DNA of 61,753 nt. It comes from Candidatus Omnitrophota bacterium. GTDB taxonomy: Bacteria; Omnitrophota; Gorgyraeia; 2-01-FULL-45-10. This document shows, one piece after another, positions 143 to 38,402 of the stretch (its first letter is position 1; each line of letters begins with the position of its first letter). A program made the position numbers and the translations under genes. The stretch lies in NCBI GenBank assembly GCA_043798375.1, contig JAZDOS010000038.1:1-61753 (forward strand). Direction: 5' to 3'. The notes beneath the pieces were generated by a model. That model was given only the letters and a program-made list of their open reading frames with translations. It ran no database searches and was not told where the DNA came from.

Positions 143-1663
143 ATGATTATGAATAAGATCATTATATTCGACACGACGCTGAGGGACGGCGAGCAGTCGC
201 CGGGCGCGAGCCTCAATATCAATGAGAAACTCGAGATAGCCAGGCAGCTGGCTGTTCTGGGCGTGGATGTTATCGAAGCGGGATTTCCCGCTTCGAGCCC
301 CGGAGATTTCGAGGCCGTTAAGAACGTCGCGAAGAATGTCAGGGGGCCGGTAATATGCGGCCTGGCGAGAGCGCTCGAAAAAGACATCGACGCCGCGTAT
401 AACGCGGTGAAGGGCGCGGCCCGTCCGCGTATCCACGTATTTCTCGCGACTTCGAAGATCCACATGAAGTACAAGCTGAAGAAGGCCGAAGACGAGATCC
501 TGAAGCTGGCCGTTGCGGCGGTTAAATACGCGAAGCACAAGTGCGGCGACATAGAATTTTCGCCGGAAGACGCTTCTCGAACCGAAAGGGAGTTTCTTTA
601 CAAGGTGGTGGAAGCCGTAATTGAGGCAGGCGCGGCCACCGTAAACATTCCGGACACCGTCGGGTATTCGACGCCGTTCGAGTTTGCCTCAATTATAAAA
701 GGCATCAAAGACAACGTCCCGAATATCGGTAAAGCGGTAATAAGCGTCCACTGCCACAACGACCTGGGGCTTGGCGTGTCGAACTCGCTTGCCGCCGTGT
801 TGAACGGCGCAAGGCAGGTCGAGTGCACCATAAACGGACTGGGCGAGCGCGCCGGTAACGCGTCACTGGAGGAGATTGTAATGGCGATCAGGACGCGGAC
901 AGATATCTTTAAGGGCGTCTCCACGCTTATCAATACGAAAGAACTTTATAAGACGAGCAGGCTTGTTTCGAAACTGACCGGTATGCCGGTCCAGCCGAAT
1001 AAAGCGATCATCGGTTCGAACGCGTTCGCGCACGAGGCCGGTATCCATCAGGACGGCGTCCTGAAGGAAAGGATTACCTACGAGATCATGAGGCCCGAGG
1101 ATGTCGGCTTTGAATCTTCGAATATCGTCCTCGGAAAACATTCAGGCCGCCACGCGTTTACGGAACGCCTGAAAAAACTGGGGTTCAACCTTAATAAGGA
1201 ACAGATCGATAAGGCGTTCGACTCCTTTAAGGTGATCGCCGATAAGAAAAAAGAGGTCTTCGATGAAGACCTGGAGACGATAGTGGATGAAGAGATATCG
1301 AAGATCCCGGAGAGATTTCATCTCCTGCATTTCTACATCGCGTCGGGCGACCAGGTCAAGCCGCAGGCGAAGATATCGCTCAAGTTTAAGGCTAAGGCGC
1401 TTGAGGCATCCTCGACCGGTGACGGGCCGGTAGATGCCTGTTACAAGGCCGTCGATAAGATAATTGGAACAAGCGGCAGGCTTCTCGACTATCAGATAAG
1501 GAGCGTCACGAGCGGCAAGGACGCGCTCGGCGAAGTTTCCGTCAAGATAGAATCCGGGACCCGGATCGTTTCGGGGAGGGGAGCCTCTACAGATATCATC
1601 GAGGCGAGTATCAAGGCGTATCTTAGCGCCGTCAATAAGTTAATGTACCAGGTAAAGAGATAA
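143..1663 (+). CDS. leuA: 2-isopropylmalate synthase
   Basis: [22 protein letters not shown] motifs; C-terminal regulatory domain (GDGPVDA). Start may be ATG 149. Confidence 0.95.
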
Positions 1664-1790
1664 ACTCTAAACTTAAAACACTAAACCCTAAATAAACACA
1701 AAACTCAAAGTCCAAAATTCAAAACATGACGATTTTTGAGTTTTGGATTTGAGGTTTTGAATTTGTTTAGAATTTAGAGTTTAGTGTTTA
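1661..1790. repeat. Inverted array of degenerate 7-nt repeats
   Basis: Left arm TAAACTC/TAAACTT/AAAACAC/TAAACCC...CAAAACT/CAAAGTC/CAAAATT; right arm TTTTGAG/TTTTGGA...TTTAGAA/TTTAGAG/TTTAGTG is approximately its reverse complement. Confidence 0.8.
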
Positions 1791-3461: not shown

Positions 3462-3590
3462 CGGTTGCGTTTTACGGTTGCGGTTGCGCCGCTCGTTACG
3501 TTGGTCGTCTTTCGGTTTTCGTTTTTACGATAGACGAATTACGAAATACGAAACGAGCCGCGCAACCGATAGACGTTTTACGAATAACGG
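3462..3590. repeat. Intergenic inverted repeat enclosing 7-nt-period repeats
   Basis: CGGTTGCGCCGCTCGTT (3481-3497) pairs with AACGAGCCGCGCAACCG (3552-3568, 1 mismatch); TCGTCTT/TCGGTTT/TCGTTTT versus ACGATAG/ACGAATT/ACGAAAT inside. Confidence 0.7.
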
Positions 3591-6609: not shown

Positions 6610-7524
6610 ATGCTAATCAGAAAAATTACACCCAACGATGCGGAGTACCCGAAAAACTTGCGGAATATACATACGCCGCCGAAGCAGCTCTATGTTAACG
6701 GCACGCTATTGGAGTCCGATGAGATAGCGGTAGCTATAGTCGGATCTCGGCGCGCATCCGTCTATGGGCTGGAGACTGCCGGGAAGCTCGGTTTCGAGCT
6801 TGCCGCGCGAGGAGTGATGGTTGTAAGCGGGATGGCTGTCGGCATCGACTCCGCCGCTCACAGGGGAGCGCTTAAAGCGAAGGGCAGGACGATAGCGGTA
6901 ATGGGAAGCGGCCACAGCGTCATTTACCCGCCGCAAAACAAGAAATTGTACGAAGAGATCGCTAATACAGGCGCGGTCATCACCGAATATGAAGACGATA
7001 TGCCTCCCCTGGCGCAGAATTTCCCCGCCCGGAACCGCATAATAAGCGGGCTTTCGCTCGGGATAGTGGTGGTGGAGGCCGCGAGAAACTCAGGCGCGCT
7101 CATCACCGCCAACTTTGCGGCGGAACAGGGCAGGACCGTATTCGCCGTTCCGGGCAAGGTCTCGTCCGTTACGAGTTCGGGAACGAATGAGCTGATACGC
7201 GACGGCGCGTGCCTTATCCAATCGGTCGATGACATACTGCAGGAATTGTCGCTAACGCCTTCGATCGGGCCGGCCGAAGGAGTAAATTTGGATAAGATAG
7301 ATAAGTCGATAGAGTCCAAAACCAGAGCGTATATCTACAATTCATTGACCGAAGACGAGCGAAAGGTTTACAAAATATTGTCGGACGAACCGTTATATAT
7401 AGATGATATTTTTAACAAGACAGGTTTCGATTCTGCCAGGGGGTCGAAGGTCCTGTTGAACCTTGAATTAAAAAAGTTGATCGCGGAATTACCCGGTAAA
7501 AATTTCGTAAGAAAGGAAAACTAA
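6610..7524 (+). CDS. dprA: DNA-processing protein DprA
   Basis: AIVGSR, VSGMAVGID, FPARNRIISGLS, SGALITA; C-terminal winged helix. Confidence 0.95.
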   Translation: MLIRKITPNDAEYPKNLRNIHTPPKQLYVNGTLLESDEIAVAIVGSRRASVYGLETAGKLGFELAARGVMVVSGMAVGIDSAAHRGALKAKGRTIAVMGSGHSVIYPPQNKKLYEEIANTGAVITEYEDDMPPLAQNFPARNRIISGLSLGIVVVEAARNSGALITANFAAEQGRTVFAVPGKVSSVTSSGTNELIRDGACLIQSVDDILQELSLTPSIGPAEGVNLDKIDKSIESKTRAYIYNSLTEDERKVYKILSDEPLYIDDIFNKTGFDSARGSKVLLNLELKKLIAELPGKNFVRKEN

Positions 7525-10701: not shown

Positions 10702-11967
10702 ATGCTATACGACATAGGATTCGCGATATTCTCGCTCTTCTATCTGCCGGCGCTGATATTCAAGGGCAAACTGCACGCAGGATTTGCGGAGAGATTCGGC
10801 ATGTTCAGCCCCGATAAGCGCAGGGCCCTGGAAGATGCCCGGGGCGCGATATGGATACAGGCGGTGAGTGTCGGCGAAGTGAGTGTCTGCAAAAGCCTCG
10901 TATCAAAATTAAGGACGGAACTTCCGGACAAAAAGATTGTTATCTCAACGATCACGAAGACCGGAAACGACCTGGCGAAGAAGCTCTTCTCGAAAGACGC
11001 GCTGATTTTATATTTTCCTCTCGATTTCTCACCGGTCGTGAAAAAGGTTGTAGCGTTAATAAAGCCGTGTATGTACGTTATGATAGAGACCGAGATCTGG
11101 CCCAATCTTTTGAAAGAGTTGTCGGCCGGCGGCATCCCGTCGATACTCATAAACGGAAGGATCTCCGACAGATCGATAGGCAAATACATGCTGGCCAGGC
11201 CCTTCCTTAAAAATACGCTTGGCAGGCCCGGCCGATTTTCAATGCAATCCGGGCTTGACGCCGAACGTATCATCTCCATGGGCGCGCCCGGGGACAGGGT
11301 GGAAGTCGCCGGCAATATGAAATTCGACGTCGATATCAAGGCCGACTCGAAGGCGATGGAGGTTTTAAGAGAGGCATTATCGTTAAAAGCCGACGAAGAA
11401 CTTTTTGTCGCCGGCAGTACGCATCCCGGCGAGGAAAAGGTGGTCATCGAATCTTTCAGGGAACTCCTGAAAGAGTTTCCGAAACTGAAACTCCTCATCG
11501 CGCCGCGCCACGTGGAGCGGGCGGGTGAGGTAGAAAAATTAGTGAAGACATTGGGGTTTGAGCCGGCCCGGTTATCGAACGAACACCGAAAACCGAATAC
11601 CGAAAACAGAATCTTCATACTTGACTTTATCGGCCAAATGAGCGCCGCCTATGCGGCCGCGACGATAGTCTACATCGGAGGCAGCCTCGTGAAACACGGC
11701 GGGCAGAATCCGATAGAGCCGGCGATATTCGGAAAGCCGGTTTTATTCGGGCCGTATATGTTTAATTTCAGGGATATCTCCGCGGCATTCCTGAAAAATA
11801 ACGCCGCGATCCGGGTTCAAAATTTAGAAGAGATAGTCAAGAACGCCAAGGTTTTATTGAAGGACAGGGCTAATCGTGATGAGATCGGTAAACTTGCCAA
11901 AGGGACAGCGATTGCCGGCCGCGGCGCGACCGGGCGTAATGTCGAAATACTGAAAAAATATGCGTAA
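10702..11967 (+). CDS. waaA: Kdo transferase
   Basis: WIQAVSVGE, PLDF, ETEIWPN, NGRIS, GSTHPGEE, PRH, GGQNPIEPA; AGGAG RBS before ATG 10702. Confidence 0.93.
   Translation: MLYDIGFAIFSLFYLPALIFKGKLHAGFAERFGMFSPDKRRALEDARGAIWIQAVSVGEVSVCKSLVSKLRTELPDKKIVISTITKTGNDLAKKLFSKDALILYFPLDFSPVVKKVVALIKPCMYVMIETEIWPNLLKELSAGGIPSILINGRISDRSIGKYMLARPFLKNTLGRPGRFSMQSGLDAERIISMGAPGDRVEVAGNMKFDVDIKADSKAMEVLREALSLKADEELFVAGSTHPGEEKVVIESFRELLKEFPKLKLLIAPRHVERAGEVEKLVKTLGFEPARLSNEHRKPNTENRIFILDFIGQMSAAYAAATIVYIGGSLVKHGGQNPIEPAIFGKPVLFGPYMFNFRDISAAFLKNNAAIRVQNLEEIVKNAKVLLKDRANRDEIGKLAKGTAIAGRGATGRNVEILKKYA
11580..11607. repeat. In-frame heptamer tract 4 x CGAANAC in waaA
   Basis: CGAACAC CGAAAAC CGAATAC CGAAAAC, encoding EHRKPNTEN. 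Confidence 0.7.
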
Positions 11968-21046: not shown

Positions 21047-22112
21047 GATTACAGGGTGCAGGGTGCAGGGTGCAGGGTACAGAAAAATACTGATCGTGAG
21101 GCTCGACAGGATAGGGGATGTTTTGCTGTCGACGCCGGTGATCAAAAACTTAAGGGATGCGTATCCGAAAAGCTACATCGCTTTTCTGGTCAGGCCATAT
21201 GCCCGCGAGATTGTCCAGGGCAACCCCTATCTCGACGATGTTATCGTTTACGATAAGGCCGGCCGGGAAAAGGGCTTGCGCGGCAATTTAAAATTCATAC
21301 GTTATCTAAGAAAAAAGAAATTCGATATGGCGATAATACTTCATCCGACTAAGAGGGCGCATCTCGTCGCGTTCCTCGCCGGCATTCCCGTCCGGGTGGG
21401 ATATGACAGGAAATGGGGAATTCTGCTCACGAAGAGGATTCCCCATACAAAACAATCCGGTTTAAAGCATGAGATAGATTACACGCTCGACATTCTGCGG
21501 TATATAGGAGTAGAGCCGGAAGACAGGACGCTCTATATGCCGGTCGACACAGCTTGCGAAACCAGGGTCAGGGGTATGATGGGGGATGCGGGCATCACGG
21601 ATACCGATTTTTGCATCGCTATTAACCCCGGAGCAAGCTGCCCTTCGAAAAGATGGAAGACTATGAATTTCGCCAGGGCCGCGGATAGCCTGGCCAAAAC
21701 TTATAACGCGAAGATCCTGATTATATCGAGCGAAGAGGACAGGATGTTTGCCGGGGAAGTGGCCGCTCTCATGTCCAGGCCGCACGTCAACCTGGCGGGT
21801 AAGACCGGCATCGGAGACGTTGCGAGCGTATTGAGAAGGGTAAAGCTTTTCGTCTCGAACGATTCCGGGCCGGTCCATATCGCAGTCGCCGTCGGGACGC
21901 CGGTGATATCGATATTCGGCAGGTCCGACCGGGGGCTTTCGCCCGAGCGCTGGGGGCCGTCGGGTAAGCGCGACGTAGCGCTTCACAAGGATGCGGGCTG
22001 CGGCGCCTGCCTCGCGCACAACTGCCGGCGCGGTTTCAGGTGCCTCGATGCGATCACCGTCGACGACGTGCTCGCCGCGGCTGCGAAAATATTGGAGAGC
22101 AGGACTAATTAA
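21039..22112 (+). CDS. GT9 family glycosyltransferase
   Basis: DRIGD, NPGAS, KRW, NDSGPVH. Confidence 0.85.
   Translation: MNRITGCRVQGAGYRKILIVRLDRIGDVLLSTPVIKNLRDAYPKSYIAFLVRPYAREIVQGNPYLDDVIVYDKAGREKGLRGNLKFIRYLRKKKFDMAIILHPTKRAHLVAFLAGIPVRVGYDRKWGILLTKRIPHTKQSGLKHEIDYTLDILRYIGVEPEDRTLYMPVDTACETRVRGMMGDAGITDTDFCIAINPGASCPSKRWKTMNFARAADSLAKTYNAKILIISSEEDRMFAGEVAALMSRPHVNLAGKTGIGDVASVLRRVKLFVSNDSGPVHIAVAVGTPVISIFGRSDRGLSPERWGPSGKRDVALHKDAGCGACLAHNCRRGFRCLDAITVDDVLAAAAKILESRTN
21052..21079. repeat. In-frame heptamer tract (CAGGGTG)3 CAGGGTA
   Basis: Read directly; encodes TGCRVQGAGY at the GT9 N-terminus. Confidence 0.85.
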
Positions 22113-31564: not shown

Positions 31565-32379
31565 TGAAGCCCAGGATAATTATAGCAGCCGTTTCGATAT
31601 TGGGCGTAATTTTAATCGCCGGGCTTTTTTTTTGGCTCGGCCGGGAAACGCGGCGGCCGCCGAAAATAGCCGAAAAGAAAGCCGCAAAAGTAACGGCGCC
31701 TGTACCTAAGGCCGCGAAACGCGCGAAGGTAGCGATAGTGATGGACGATTTCGGGTACAACATGAATGATCTCGATACGCTATTTTCCATCAATGAGCCG
31801 ATAACGCTGTCGATACTGCCCAGCCTGAGATACTCGAAGACGATCGCGGAATATGCCCGCGGCCGCGGTTACGAGGTTATCCTGCACCTTCCTCTTGAGC
31901 CGCACAGAAAAGATGTGAAAGAAGAGGCCGATACGATCAGATCCGGGATGGCCGATACCGAGATCGTCTCAAGGCTCGCGAAAGAGATTGAGAGTGTGCC
32001 GGGGGCAAGCGGCGTCTCCAACCACATGGGTTCGAAATCTACGGAAGATAAAGAGCTGATGGCGGCCATATTCAGGTATCTGAAGAACCGCCGCCTCTAT
32101 TTTTTTGACAGCCTGACCTCGGAAAAATCCGTATGCCGGGAAACTGCCGAAGCGGCCGGACTGAAATATGCCAGACGGGATATATTTCTGGATAATACGG
32201 ACAGGCGCGAATACATCGAGAAACAGCTTGCGGCTCTCAAAAGGATGGCTCTTAGAAAAGGCCGCGCCATAGCGGTCTGCCATGACAAAAAATTCACGAT
32301 AGCGGCGCTCGCGAAAATGATGCCTCAGATGGCGAAAGACGGCATCGAATTCGTAACGCTTTCGGATATGGTGCGGTGA
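31564..32379 (+). CDS. Divergent polysaccharide deacetylase (YibQ-like)
   Basis: AIVMDDFG, HLPLEP, NHMGS, FFDSLT, RDIFLD; follows the S41 protease. Confidence 0.88.
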   Translation: MKPRIIIAAVSILGVILIAGLFFWLGRETRRPPKIAEKKAAKVTAPVPKAAKRAKVAIVMDDFGYNMNDLDTLFSINEPITLSILPSLRYSKTIAEYARGRGYEVILHLPLEPHRKDVKEEADTIRSGMADTEIVSRLAKEIESVPGASGVSNHMGSKSTEDKELMAAIFRYLKNRRLYFFDSLTSEKSVCRETAEAAGLKYARRDIFLDNTDRREYIEKQLAALKRMALRKGRAIAVCHDKKFTIAALAKMMPQMAKDGIEFVTLSDMVR

Positions 32380-33428
32380 TGCTTACGCTCGGCATAGAGA
32401 CATCCTGCGACGAGACGAGCGTCTCGGTTACCAGGGGCGTGAAAGTTCTTTCGAATATCGTGACCTCGAGCGTCCATCTTCACAAGAAGTATGGCGGCGT
32501 GGTGCCTGAGATAGCGTCGAGATACCACGTCGAATTTATAATAGAGGTGCTTAAGGCGGCGTTAAAGAGTTCGAAAAAAGATTTGGACGATATGAAGCTC
32601 GTGGCAGTCACGAACGGCCCGGGATTGGTAGGCGCGCTTCTTGTCGGCATATCTCTGGCAAAATCGATCAGCTATAGCCTGGGGCTTCCCATTATAGGCG
32701 TCAATCATATACTGGCGCATCTTTACAGCTCGTTTCTGAACCCCGTTAGAAAAAAGTTTTCTAACGGGGTGAACGAAAGCGATAAACCGAAGTTTCCTTT
32801 TGTGGGGCTCGTGGTTTCCGGCGGGCACACGGCTTTATTTCACTGCGAAAGGGTGGGAAGAGAGAGGCTTCTCGGCCAGACGCAGGACGACGCCGTGGGC
32901 GAGGCGTACGATAAGGTCGCCAAACTCTTAGGGCTCGGGTATCCGGGCGGGCCGGTAATCGAGAAAATGGCAAGGCAGGCGAAGGGATTAAATAAGATAA
33001 ATTTCCCGAAAAGCTACCTCGGAAAAGATTCGCTCGATTTCAGTTTCAGCGGAATCAAGACGGCGGTTCTTTATTATGTAAATAAATTACGCATTACGCA
33101 TTACGCATTACGCATTACGGATATTGCCGACATCTGCCGCGCGTTCCAGGAAGCCGCCCTCGATGTCCTGGTCGAAAAGGCGATATTGGCCGGCCGGATC
33201 ACGGATTGTTCCAGGATAGTGGCGGGCGGAGGTGTTGCCGCGAACACCAGGCTCAGGGAGAAGCTCGGGGCGGCATGCGAATTTTCTTCTATGAATTTAC
33301 ATTTTCCTGAGTTAAAATACTGTCTGGACAATGCCGCGATGGTGGGAGCGCTTGGAGAAGAGCTTTACAGGCTTGGCCTTAAGTCGGACTTGTATTTAAG
33401 CGCCGAGCCAAATCTTAACATAAGTTAA
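32379..33428 (+). CDS. tsaD: tRNA N6-threonylcarbamoyltransferase
   Basis: GIETSCDET, GGVVPEIASR, HILAH, VSGGHT, DDAVGEAYDK, FSFSGIKT, DNAAM. Confidence 0.96.
   Translation: MLTLGIETSCDETSVSVTRGVKVLSNIVTSSVHLHKKYGGVVPEIASRYHVEFIIEVLKAALKSSKKDLDDMKLVAVTNGPGLVGALLVGISLAKSISYSLGLPIIGVNHILAHLYSSFLNPVRKKFSNGVNESDKPKFPFVGLVVSGGHTALFHCERVGRERLLGQTQDDAVGEAYDKVAKLLGLGYPGGPVIEKMARQAKGLNKINFPKSYLGKDSLDFSFSGIKTAVLYYVNKLRITHYALRITDIADICRAFQEAALDVLVEKAILAGRITDCSRIVAGGGVAANTRLREKLGAACEFSSMNLHFPELKYCLDNAAMVGALGEELYRLGLKSDLYLSAEPNLNIS
32741..32769. mobile_element. CCCCGTTAGA mini-element, copy 5 (29 bp, in frame in tsaD)
   Basis: CCCCGTTAGAAAA-AAG-TTTTCTAACGGGG; TGAA duplicated at 32737-32740 and 32770-32773. 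Confidence 0.88.
33086..33120. repeat. In-frame heptamer tract (ATTACGC)4 ATTACGG in tsaD
   Basis: Read directly; encodes LRITHYALRIT. Confidence 0.9.
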
Positions 33429-33473
33429 AAGGCAAAAGTAAAAAGGTAAAAGTTCAATGCAAAATGCAAAAGT
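33426..33473. repeat. Heptamer array left of the four-helix-bundle gene
   Basis: TAAAAGG CAAAAGT AAAAAGG TAAAAGT ... CAAAATG CAAAAGT. Confidence 0.75.
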
Positions 33474-33816
33474 TTTTGATATAAAAGAAAGGACATTGTT
33501 ATTTTCCTTAGAGATTGTTAAATTTTTGGAGTCTTTCCCAAAAACTTATATTGCCGACACTATTGGTAAGCAATTGCTGAGGAGCGCTACTTCGATCGGC
33601 GCAAATATTGTAGAGGCCCAGGCCGCCCCATCCAAGAAAGACTTTACAAATTTTTATAATATATCTTTAAAGTCGGCAAATGAGACTAAATATTGGCTGG
33701 CATTATGGGGAAAAATATTAAGAGATAGAAATACGGATATTGAAAAACTGCAGAAAGAAGTTGACGAAATCTCGCGAATTTTAGCAAAAAGTATTCTAAC
33801 CATAAAAGGTAGGTAA
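33457..33816 (+). CDS. Four helix bundle protein (TIGR02436 / 23S rRNA IVP-like family)
   Basis: KQLLRSATSIGANIVEAQ, SKKDF, SLKSANETKYWL signature; AT-rich. Confidence 0.88.
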   Translation: MQNAKVFDIKERTLLFSLEIVKFLESFPKTYIADTIGKQLLRSATSIGANIVEAQAAPSKKDFTNFYNISLKSANETKYWLALWGKILRDRNTDIEKLQKEVDEISRILAKSILTIKGR

Positions 33817-33870
33817 ATTTTTACTTTTACTTTGTGGTTTTACCTTTTGACTTTTACCTTTTGAATTTTA
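33817..33870. repeat. Inverted heptamer array right of the four-helix-bundle gene
   Basis: CCTTTTG ACTTTTA CCTTTTG AATTTTA, the reverse complement of the left array type. Confidence 0.75.
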
Positions 33871-33887
33871 TATCTGGAGGTAAACCG

Positions 33888-34559
33888 ATGCTGAATGAGT
33901 GGATCATCGTATTCCGGTTAGTGCTGGCGGCGGTTTTGAGCGGGATGATCGGTTTCGAACGCGAATTCCACGGCCGCGCGGCGGGTTTCAGGACTCATAT
34001 CTTATTATGCATCGGATCGACGCTCGTCATGCTGACCTCGATGCACATCTTCGATATCTATTATACGAGGGTTGCCGTCGATCCCGGCAGGATCGCGGCG
34101 GGCGTCGTGACGGGCATAGGGTTCCTGGGCGCCGGCGCTATAATACATTCAAGGTCGTCCATAAAAGGGCTTACTACCGCGGCGAGCCTCTGGGTCGTCG
34201 CAGGCATAGGCCTCGGAGTCGGGTCGGGTCTGTATCTGGGCTCGATAATTACGACGATCCTTACCCTCATAGCGCTCATGTTATTTTCCCGCATCGAACA
34301 TTCGATGATCAGAAAAGACTGGTACAGGACGATCGTGATCGATACCAGGGACGGCGCGGACCAGTTAAAGGCCATACGGGAAACGCTGGCCGAATACAGG
34401 AACGAGATTACGGACTTTGAGGCTGACAGGGCAAAAGACAGCCCGAACATGGTGTTGAAGCTGGGCCTCAAGCTTTATGAGCCGCGGCTGGCGGAGAATA
34501 TTCTGGAGGATATCGGCCGTTTAGACGGCGTGAAGAGTGTGAGATGGCAGATAGAATAG
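33888..34559 (+). CDS. MgtC/SapB family membrane protein
   Basis: IGFERE, AGFRTH, DPGRIAAGVVTGIGFLGAGAI, GLTTAASLW; GGAGG RBS. Confidence 0.9.
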   Translation: MLNEWIIVFRLVLAAVLSGMIGFEREFHGRAAGFRTHILLCIGSTLVMLTSMHIFDIYYTRVAVDPGRIAAGVVTGIGFLGAGAIIHSRSSIKGLTTAASLWVVAGIGLGVGSGLYLGSIITTILTLIALMLFSRIEHSMIRKDWYRTIVIDTRDGADQLKAIRETLAEYRNEITDFEADRAKDSPNMVLKLGLKLYEPRLAENILEDIGRLDGVKSVRWQIE

Positions 34560-37445: not shown

Positions 37446-38402
37446 ATGAAATTATTAAAGATTTTGTTTTTTCTCTATATGCTATACGCTATACCCCATA
37501 CGCTATCTTACGCCGATACCGTCGAGACGAAGTCCGGCAGCGAGATAAAAGGCATCGTGGTCGAAGATTACAGGGATAGGCTCGTTCTTTCCACGGCGGA
37601 CGGCGAGATTACCCTGATGAAGTCGGATATCAGGGAAGTTTATTTCGACAGCGAAGAGGACAACCTGATAAAGCTCGCGGAACAGGCCCGGGAAAGAAAA
37701 GATTACCCGAAGGCTTTCGTATATTACGATAAGGCGTTAAAATTGAATCCGAAATCAAAGGCGGCCATGGACGGCGTGGTATTTTTGCAGGGTTATCTTT
37801 TCCGGAAGGAAGAGGCCGAGAAAGAGGAAGACGTAAAGAAGCGCGAGGCTATAGAAAATTACGGCACCATAATTCCAACCGCGCTCAGCGAAGAGGCGAG
37901 GGAGAAGAAGGCCGCCGAAAACCTTAAAAAGACCATCGGGATAACGATTGCGACGGAATCCGGGCTTCCCGTGGTATACAGCGTCCAGCCCAAATCGCCG
38001 GCTGCCGAAGCCGGCATAAAAAAGGCCGATTTACTCATAGCGGTGTGGGCGAGGCTTACGGGTTATCTTTCGCCGGCCGAAGTCATGGATATGCTTCTCG
38101 ACAAGCCGTCGCTCGAGTTGAAGGTTACGATAGAGCGGGTATTCGAAGTAAGGCCGGATTTTGGAAACTCGACGGGCGCGTCATTATCGATGGAATTTGA
38201 CGGCCTTACGGTTGACAGGGTTAGGGGATACGGCCCGGCGTTTCACGCCGGAATCAAAAAAGACGACCTTATAACCGCCATAAACGGCCAATCGACAAGG
38301 TATATGCCTTTGAATAAGGCGAGAGGCCTGATCAAGCGTTCAAAAGAAGGATATATCAAATTTAACATAAGAAGAGAAGTCCTTATATGGAGGAGAGACT
38401 GA
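37446..38402 (+). CDS. Secreted TPR/PDZ-domain protein
   Basis: Signal peptide, one TPR-like segment, two PDZ-like segments (SPAAEAGIKKAD, GPAFHAGIKKDD). Confidence 0.7.
   Translation: MKLLKILFFLYMLYAIPHTLSYADTVETKSGSEIKGIVVEDYRDRLVLSTADGEITLMKSDIREVYFDSEEDNLIKLAEQARERKDYPKAFVYYDKALKLNPKSKAAMDGVVFLQGYLFRKEEAEKEEDVKKREAIENYGTIIPTALSEEAREKKAAENLKKTIGITIATESGLPVVYSVQPKSPAAEAGIKKADLLIAVWARLTGYLSPAEVMDMLLDKPSLELKVTIERVFEVRPDFGNSTGASLSMEFDGLTVDRVRGYGPAFHAGIKKDDLITAINGQSTRYMPLNKARGLIKRSKEGYIKFNIRREVLIWRRD
37475..37507. repeat. Degenerate heptamer tract in a signal-peptide coding region
   Basis: CTATATG CTATACG CTATACC CCATACG CTATC. Confidence 0.65.

Follow-up and report, generated by a model that had tools for sequence, protein, structure and literature searches.

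A four-helix-bundle gene enclosed by complementary heptamer arrays, a probable one-block insertion between tsaD and mgtC in an Omnitrophota genome

In a contig of 61,753 nucleotides (nt) from a Candidatus Omnitrophota bacterium (JAZDOS010000038.1, assembly GCA_043798375.1; the whole contig is called the window below), a gene for a 119-amino-acid four-helix-bundle protein of the PF05635 family lies between tsaD and mgtC, closed on both sides by tandem heptamer arrays that are reverse complements of each other. Comparison with related genomes makes it nearly certain that the gene and both arms entered this junction as one block. The reading that we find best is a mobile cassette of the intervening sequence (IVS) type, with the heptamer arms as its cis-acting ends and the arrays bound by its own protein; taken as a whole, this statement is tentative and falls a little short of probable. 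The genome comprises 1.456 Mb in 58 contigs and is 95% complete. Features of the window are listed in Table 1.

The tsaD and mgtC genes are adjacent in 27 of 29 loci of relatives. In all 23 junctions of relatives that were read, the end of tsaD is separated from the start of mgtC by 2–90 nt and no open reading frame (ORF) for a four-helix-bundle protein is present. The usual form of the junction is compact: tsaD ends with ...AAT CTG GAG GTn nnn TGA, its stop codon overlaps the ATG of mgtC, and the Shine-Dalgarno word GGAGG of mgtC is contained in the last codons of tsaD. The same-genus genome G001, whose MgtC is 96% identical, shows exactly this empty-site form. The words AATCT and GGAGG, which abut in the relatives, are separated by 460 nt in the window. 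The insert gives tsaD four new codons and a stop codon and ends directly before the ribosome-binding site of mgtC, which is kept intact. A four-base word repeated at both edges is a possible, weak target duplication. At the two gene-less hairpins of the window the flanks have diverged and no clear target duplication is readable; in G001 both of these junctions run directly from the stop codon through a short spacer to the next start codon. The first-pass annotation had supposed a mobile or RNA-processing system and had suggested a look for empty tsaD–mgtC sites. Such sites were found, and mobility is borne out by comparison only: the three junctions checked in the same-genus genome are all empty, and gene-less copies of the arms exist. 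A precise empty site in relatives is the kind of presence/absence polymorphism that autonomous elements and elements resembling MITEs (miniature inverted-repeat transposable elements) show. As a separate observation, the 44-nt tsaD–mgtC spacer of G009 (L044) contains AAGGTAAAAGT, one unit similar to those of the window arms, which may be either chance or a footprint.

The ORF matches PF05635 (E 2.9e-23, 82.5 bits, cut-off 33.8) and TIGR02436 (E 2.3e-27, 95.4 bits, cut-off 24), and both neighbouring genes were confirmed with Pfam, as was a bactofilin-HTH gene further downstream of mgtC. The G+C content is 31–38% in the cassette and about 50–57% in its flanks. A scan of the cassette for promoters and terminators yielded a single promoter-like site and no terminator, which is no more than shuffled sequences give. 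No Rfam family was matched (the best hit, the Histone3 stem-loop with E 0.96, is at chance level), and no rRNA match was found in 33200–34100; the cassette thus lies outside any 23S rRNA gene. Three DNA metagenome runs yielded only short contigs of relatives, piled on both arms, with the ORF barely covered and less than 30 nt on the sides of the joints.

Arrays with a period of 7 or 14 were detected by Tandem Repeats Finder (TRF) at 33422–33453 and 33818–33870. The arms 33422–33474 and 33815–33867 are 53 nt long and 75% complementary, and their consensus units, AAAAGGT upstream and ACCTTTT downstream, are exact reverse complements. The upstream arm holds the new stop codon of tsaD (33426–33428) as well as the start codon of the ORF (33457). 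In a predicted fold of 476 nt of RNA the arms pair with each other (z = −2.28; 2 of 100 shuffled sequences fold equally well). Profiles, TRF and the inverted-repeat match thus bear out the first-pass description of a 119-amino-acid gene in inverted heptamer arrays between housekeeping genes, as the predicted fold does for the suggestion that the transcript could fold with the ORF as the loop. The statement that the arrays bracket the ORF holds with one correction, since the upstream array reaches into the ORF and writes its start codon and first five codons.

The same design recurs in the genome. All six PF05635 loci are flanked by arrays in which the downstream unit complements the upstream one, and each locus has its own unit; the pairs at other copies include TCGGTTA/ACCGAAC, CAGGGKW/CTGTACC and GTGTCAG/ACATGAC, and the copy on contig C7 has an 8-nt period. 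PF05635 is present in 25 of 41 related genomes, this one included. Among 53 cassettes collected from the genome and its relatives, a TRF array of the period-7 family occurs in at least one flank of 41 and in both flanks of 29. In 19 of 45 cassettes, at most one mismatch separates the upstream unit from the reverse-complemented downstream unit of that cassette; when units are paired across different cassettes, this happens in only 37 of 1980 pairs. Where two proteins share 60% identity or more, their cassettes have similar units (mean distance 1.81, n=16, half of the pairs within one mismatch); under 60%, no relation between the arm units is left and the mean distance is about 3.5. In a permutation test of protein identity against unit similarity the observed value was reached by 3 of 999 shuffles. 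By these comparisons, the gene and its arms descend together, with a fast turnover of the arms. As they change quickly but stay periodic and complementary, concerted evolution within each arm and between the two arms would be needed.

Outside the phylum, tblastn was used to find plasmid loci of the gene, and six from three other phyla were read. Inverted heptamer arms are present in four of them (Riemerella, Nostoc edaphicum, Geminocystis and Picosynechococcus), and in the other two, Pseudanabaena (period 7) and Gemmatirosa (period 8), both flanking arrays are on the same strand. Period-7 arrays, found in five of the six plasmid loci, accompany the gene more constantly than does the inverted orientation, found in four. 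The earlier idea that the protein travels with nucleic acid of 7-nt period is therefore well founded: gene and arms form one 460-nt block, the arrays accompany all six copies in the genome, copies in relatives and five plasmid loci, and proteins at least 60% identical share units.

Several contexts of the gene were recorded along the way. The cassette of three relatives has a tRNA gene on either side (Thr/Tyr in L012, Val/Asp in L028 and Leu/Gly in L029); these sites are spacers of stable-RNA operons and recall the rRNA IVS. One context is common to six cassettes of different genomes (L009, L015, L017, L021, L024 and L169), whose arm units differ; upstream of them is a conserved ...ACGTCTTATATAGT(A/G)GGG... 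word, and downstream a promoter-like or leader-like stretch, TTTACA..GGAGGTGA..(A/G)TGTATAAT. On cyanobacterial plasmids the gene is found inside CRISPR-Cas operons, between cas10 and cmr3 in Picosynechococcus (L233) and between cas6 and cas4 in Pseudanabaena (L234), where the same-strand arrays are long, with about 14 and at least 9 units. Within 6.5 kb of the genome studied here (C42:4600-11200, L166) there are three cassettes and one gene-less heptamer hairpin (7188–7250); these cassettes are inside or next to a second operon for ATP synthase (atpC, b/delta fusion, c, alpha, gamma, beta), and another atpD is on C49.

Copies of the arms without the gene are also present. BLAST searches with the arms of the tsaD–mgtC cassette found ten further places on eight contigs. 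Of eight such places that were read, at least three are two-armed hairpins without a gene (C49:22674-22780, C49:4533-4630 and C30:36673-36760), and the first of these retains about the first 20 nt of the ORF together with an irregular unit of the 3' arm. In the window, the hairpin at 3462–3590 is absent from the same junction in both G001 and G002, and its arms are homologous by BLAST to those of an ORF-bearing cassette on C44.

An array of period 7 was counted as strong when it had 3.5 or more copies and scored 38 or more in TRF. Genome-wide there are 136 strong period-7 arrays, compared with 0–5 at each of the periods 5, 6 and 8–12, and their modal length is 31 nt. When units were counted by an exact 3-nt core repeated at period 7 in 186 arrays, 66 had four units, 90 had five, 8 had six and 11 had seven or more. 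Four to five units is a sharp length rule; from slippage alone, a decaying distribution would be expected. Among the four largest unit families, three are those of resident cassette arms (the CGGTT, CAGGG and AAAAGK types). Out of 128 solitary arrays, 75 match the arm units of the genome's own cassettes with at most one mismatch; with the arms of other genomes the mean is 21.9 (range 6–44). Homogenisation within the genome would also yield such matching.

The protein belongs to a structurally characterised family. In phmmer searches it matched 2RLD (BT_0352, E 2.4e-17) and 2GSC (XCC0516, E 3.4e-4), each deposited with five chains; a homopentamer is cited for XCC0516 in the available portion of PMC4990558. 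From an alignment of 45 sequences, AlphaFold2 gave a four-helix model with a predicted local distance difference test score (pLDDT) of 93.1, and Foldseek aligns it to 2rld and 2gsc with template modelling (TM) scores of 0.80 and 0.83. Similarity to Avd, the accessory protein of diversity-generating retroelements (DGR), is also detected: TM 0.76, E 1.4e-2, root-mean-square deviation 2.3 Å and 15% identity for 4dwl, and TM 0.73–0.75 for the Avd chains of the DGR ribonucleoprotein (RNP). The structural kinship to Avd stated in the first-pass annotation is thus upheld, as is its statement that the family was first found in 23S rRNA IVS and has no known function, as far as the available part of PMC4990558 and the titles of the PDB entries go. 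Residues E53 and E76 are invariant and Q39, S46 and N50 are conserved in at least 90% of sequences; all of them are kept in the 119-amino-acid protein.

In the DGR particle, as described in the accessible text of the preprint, a single 11-bp stem-loop, Sp3-33, makes contact with each of the five Avd subunits, and the crevices between subunits hold flipped-out bases (bioRxiv 10.1101/2023.10.23.563531). Since Avd subunits grip a stem-loop, we infer that a putative PF05635 ring could bind periodic nucleic acid; this is an analogy and not a test. By this analogy, binding of the protein to its own heptamer arrays is possible, and we are somewhat more doubtful of it than of a probable claim.

The reading that we prefer is as follows. 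The cassette is a promoterless four-helix-bundle gene closed by two reverse-complementary arms of 4–7 tandem heptamers each. In the lineage that leads to this genome, the block came to lie at the tsaD–mgtC junction, between the last codons of tsaD and the ribosome-binding site of mgtC, and the arms would act as the cis-acting ends of the element. Most likely the protein would bind heptamer arrays with one unit per subunit, as the five Avd subunits grip their stem-loop, and such binding would promote the copying, maintenance or spread of arrays, including the gene-less hairpins and the solitary arrays of 4–5 units. Any catalytic partner and the way of moving would likewise have to be supposed. 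In a bolder version, which we consider unlikely, PF05635 rings bind arrays with one 7-nt unit per subunit, so that the ring is the ruler that sets 4–5 units, and drive an undescribed kind of repeat writing or spreading without a transposase or reverse transcriptase of their own.

Across related genomes the gene and the arrays are associated. We sampled 31–100 kb from each of 26 relatives. In the pooled set, a strong array is present in 9 of the 12 genomes with the gene and in 4 of the 14 without it (Fisher p 0.047), and the densities per 100 kb are 3.4 and 1.24, respectively (Spearman 0.45, p 0.02); these p-values overstate the case, as the sampled genomes are akin and many are incomplete, with cassettes often at contig ends. 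The association is real but moderate, and it is not strict. The first-pass annotation had expected gene copy number to correlate with the density of period-7 tracts; a moderate correlation is indeed present, and as a strict rule the expectation fails. The opposite outcome, no correlation together with a gene that is stably syntenic in relatives without flanking arrays, was not observed. The stronger proposal that the protein recognises or generates the repeats stays a conjecture, given that the correlation is only moderate and that some gene-free genomes still carry canonical arrays.

A number of observations weigh against the mobile-cassette reading. In the first 20 genomes, raw counts of TRF period-7 repeats correlate only weakly with gene copies (rho 0.40, p 0.08); the strong-array criterion, by which at least one such array is found in 8 of 10 of these genomes with the gene and in 2 of 10 without it, was set after they had been seen. 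The six-genome replicate was mixed, with 0, 0, 4 and 3 arrays in genomes without the gene and, in those with it, 0 in 60 kb and 6 in 35 kb. The four genomes that have canonical arrays and no detectable gene (G001, G024, G021 and G040) are 82–94% complete. Matching of solitary arrays to the genome's own arms is weak in nine relatives (10 of 29, with 5.1 expected). The stem is not universal, as the two plasmid loci with directly oriented arrays show. The sole ORF of the cassette encodes the PF05635 protein, and no transposase, nuclease or recombinase can be recognised in the element; the genome, 95% complete, gave no match to the reverse transcriptase model RVT_1; and searches for binding, expression or transposition data found none for this or any other family member. 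A HUH/RAYT enzyme (RAYT, tyrosine transposase associated with repetitive extragenic palindromes, REP) was tried as a partner and rejected: Y1_Tnp genes exist in the genome, and the best of them, of IS200 type on C32, has G+C-rich hairpins of its own and no heptamer flanks.

The atpG–atpD junction adds a further point on the same side. One of the C42 cassettes sits between these two genes, and the same junction in relatives carries unrelated hairpins: a gene-less heptamer hairpin with the unit GCGGGTT in G009 (L188), a plain palindrome in G037 (L189) and another inverted-repeat element in G019 (L190), the last two being of non-heptamer type. The junction keeps a hairpin while the hairpin sequence turns over, and junctions of this kind may attract hairpins for host reasons.

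These data are what a different explanation would lead one to expect, namely that the hairpins came first and the gene is a passenger. Arrays would arise by host slippage, hairpin-directed repair or gene conversion at junctions of a stop codon with a ribosome-binding site, and the gene, with an unrelated function, would lodge in hairpin loops or survive best inside them. Strong arrays exceed genes by more than 20 to 1 (136 to 6), four of the 14 gene-free genomes have canonical arrays, arm units become unrelated below 60% protein identity, and the heptamer repeats published for Xanthomonas, Nostoc, Geobacter and Beggiatoaceae are given, in the available text of those papers, without a link to the protein; in the text searched of the Xanthomonas/Nostoc, Beggiatoaceae and Geobacter repeat papers the terms '23S', 'four helix' and 'S23' have 0 occurrences. 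The insertion data speak against a passenger, as the entire 460-nt block, arms too, is missing from the empty site. The same units are found with closely related proteins across different genomes and contexts, one gene-less copy retains the beginning of the ORF, 10 of the 14 gene-free genomes have no strong array in the 31–100 kb sampled, and plain slippage does not predict the rule of 4–5 units. We regard this explanation as doubtful rather than implausible.

A true RNA intervening sequence was also considered. The arms would pair in the tsaD–mgtC transcript and a double-strand-specific RNase would cut the stem, as RNase III does in 23S rRNA, freeing the ORF RNA and separating or restoring the flanking cistrons; the heptamer period would then serve only to build long stems. 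The 23S IVS of Coxiella and Leptospira is built alike: a terminal stem whose loop carries the ORF. In the Coxiella IVS, according to the available portion of PMC4990558, three tandem heptamers precede the ORF, their number varies by strain, and RNase III cuts at the first one. The predicted pairing of the arms and the cassettes flanked by tRNA genes in three relatives are in line with this model, and a longest-ORF heuristic gives the cassette and its downstream gene one orientation in 28 of 31 loci (23 of 29 for the upstream gene). The enzyme itself is the difficulty: searches of the genome with PF14622, PF00636 and TIGR02191 gave no RNase III, and PF14622 is matched in only 6 of 41 related genomes (4 of the 28 of high quality) and in none of G006, G009, G026, G029 and G035, which carry 3–7 copies of the gene. 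If this pattern is real, classical RNase III is largely lacking in the clade. Pairing between the arms comprises 662 Watson-Crick, 15 G:U, 14 A:C and 67 other pairs. G:U pairs are thus not in excess over A:C, and they give no sign of selection on the stem as sense RNA; this counts also against the preferred cassette reading. The modest z-score of the fold and the direct arrays at two of six plasmid loci further reduce the case. We consider an RNA intervening sequence quite improbable, and the RNA-processing role suggested in the first-pass annotation is weakened by the same lack of G:U bias and of RNase III matches.

Very improbable is a host regulatory hairpin that tunes the tsaD:mgtC expression ratio through transcript stability or translational coupling, with the protein as a chaperone or regulator for its neighbours: the insert lies exactly at a translational-coupling junction with the mgtC ribosome-binding site preserved, and hairpins recur at operon-internal junctions, but the insert is limited to one lineage while all 23 relatives examined have the short junction, the gene family occurs in unrelated contexts (ATP synthase operon, tRNA spacers, CRISPR-Cas operons), and promoter or terminator signals do not rise above the shuffled background.

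The two gene-less inverted arrays and the four coding tracts (in waaA, GT9, tsaD and the PDZ protein gene) listed in the first-pass annotation are all present, and both arrays fold as hairpins (Table 1). The tsaD tract encodes LRITHYALRIT; G018 (L039) has LRVTHYGLRVT at this place, and the loop of G001 is shorter and unrelated. Signal peptides or Lys-rich N-termini are partly written by heptamer arrays at L166:5171-5201, at window positions 37475–37506 and at C44:48541-48584. On C42, the array in the signal peptide of the next gene has exactly the sequence of the downstream arm of the cassette beside it. At L166:10425-10471 a CAGGGGA array of 6.7 units lies inside the atpG coding sequence, and its unit is that of the upstream arm of a cassette 5.7 kb away.

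Table 1. Positions of the cassette, its parts and other heptamer features in the window
Feature	Position	Strand	Basis or remark
Whole cassette (arm, ORF, arm), 460 nt	33416..33875	+	tsaD–mgtC junction alignment against G001 (L057) and 22 other relatives
Four-helix-bundle protein gene, 119 amino acids (PF05635 / TIGR02436)	33457..33816	+	profiles, AlphaFold2, Foldseek
Upstream heptamer arm, units AAAAGGC / AAAAGTA / AAAAGGT	33422..33474	+	TRF period 7/14, inverted repeat
Downstream heptamer arm, unit ACCTTTT, from the ORF stop codon onward	33815..33870	+	TRF, inverted repeat, consensus
ATCT, left copy of possible 4-nt target duplication	33412..33415	+	read from sequence and alignment; four bases, weak
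ATCT, right copy of possible target duplication	33872..33875	+	followed by GGAGG (33876–33880) and the mgtC start (33889)
tsaD	32376..33428	+	Pfam-confirmed; last four codons and stop codon come from the insert
MgtC-family gene	start 33889	+	Pfam-confirmed; downstream neighbour of the cassette
Gene-less compound heptamer hairpin between leuA-like gene and shikimate dehydrogenase gene	1661..1790	+	TRF, fold z −9.6; absent at the G001 junction
Gene-less heptamer hairpin between stop codon and Shine-Dalgarno word of chorismate synthase gene	3462..3590	+	fold z −5.1
Coding heptamer tract CGAAAAC in Kdo-transferase gene	11580..11611	+	TRF
Coding heptamer tract CAGGGTG, 5' end of GT9 heptosyltransferase gene	21052..21082	+	TRF
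Coding heptamer tract ATTACGC x4.9, in frame, variable loop of tsaD	33086..33119	+	TRF
Coding heptamer tract CTATACG, writes signal peptide of PDZ-domain protein	37475..37506	+	TRF

The protein family is very large, spans many phyla and has been solved twice, and from its discovery in rRNA intervening sequences onward no function has been assigned to it. The locus described here joins this family with the unexplained excess of heptamer tandem repeats in bacterial genomes. It supplies a dated insertion whose empty site is exact, a family with one gene-bearing and several gene-less copies, and the length rule of 4–5 units, and it turns a vague association into a testable claim, that the protein binds and mobilises its own arrays. 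For annotation, the element matters in that it rewrites gene ends such as the C-terminus of tsaD, separates genes whose translation is coupled and codes for peptide segments, signal peptides among them. If the ring-ruler version were true, short heptamer arrays and hairpins would be seeded, homogenised and moved through bacterial genomes, with targets that include junctions in operons, spacers of rRNA and tRNA, coding loops and signal peptides, and both the 23S IVS and the bacterial excess of heptamer repeats would be explained.

The closest known system is the 23S rRNA IVS of Coxiella burnetii and Leptospira, with its S23p ORF. The two have in common the protein family, an ORF in the loop of a terminal inverted repeat and in sense orientation within the host transcript, and an element size of about 430–460 nt. 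In contrast to the IVS, this copy lies between protein-coding genes and not in helix 25 or 45 of rRNA, both of its arms are heptamers throughout, the genome is full of gene-less copies and solitary arrays, and the excising enzyme of the IVS, RNase III, was not found here with the three models used. In the literature outside subscription journals and supplements (Geobacter figures included), no paper was found that describes the gene-in-heptamer-arms cassette as a class, and heptamers beside this ORF are noted, in the text available, only for the Coxiella IVS.

With Avd (4DWL; RNP 8UB7) the protein shares the four-helix-bundle fold; Avd is described in the accessible part of its literature as a pentameric barrel with five subunits on one RNA stem-loop. 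Unlike in the DGR, no reverse transcriptase, template repeat or variable repeat is adjacent, and the neighbours are tsaD and mgtC. We know of no Avd genes flanked by heptamer arrays.

Heptamer repeats have been reported in Xanthomonas (GGGAATC), Nostoc (GGGGAYT), Geobacter and Beggiatoaceae (TAACTGA) and among the short tandemly repeated repetitive (STRR) sequences of cyanobacteria (PMC4692102, PMC2700814, PMC4679880); as far as the available text of these papers shows, the Geobacter genome paper among them describes elements of four and of five tandem heptanucleotides. The arrays of the present genome resemble the published ones, in the parts available, in their period of 7, their short length (four or five units in Geobacter) and their intergenic as well as intragenic location, and the convergent pairs of Xanthomonas can form hairpins. 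They differ in that many unit families coexist in one genome and that three of the four largest are those of resident cassette arms.

Pairs of MITEs with autonomous elements, and REP–RAYT systems, provide the last comparison. Terminal inverted repeats, one ORF-bearing and several ORF-less copies, intergenic insertion and empty sites are shared with them. In contrast to these systems, the ORF encodes no known transposase, the ends are tandem heptamers that differ by family, and the target duplication is at best 4 nt. To what is known of all these systems the present analysis adds the lack of RNase III matches and of a wobble bias in the arms, a moderate association across genomes, the rule of 4–5 units, gene-less derivatives and an exact empty site in a genome of the same genus.

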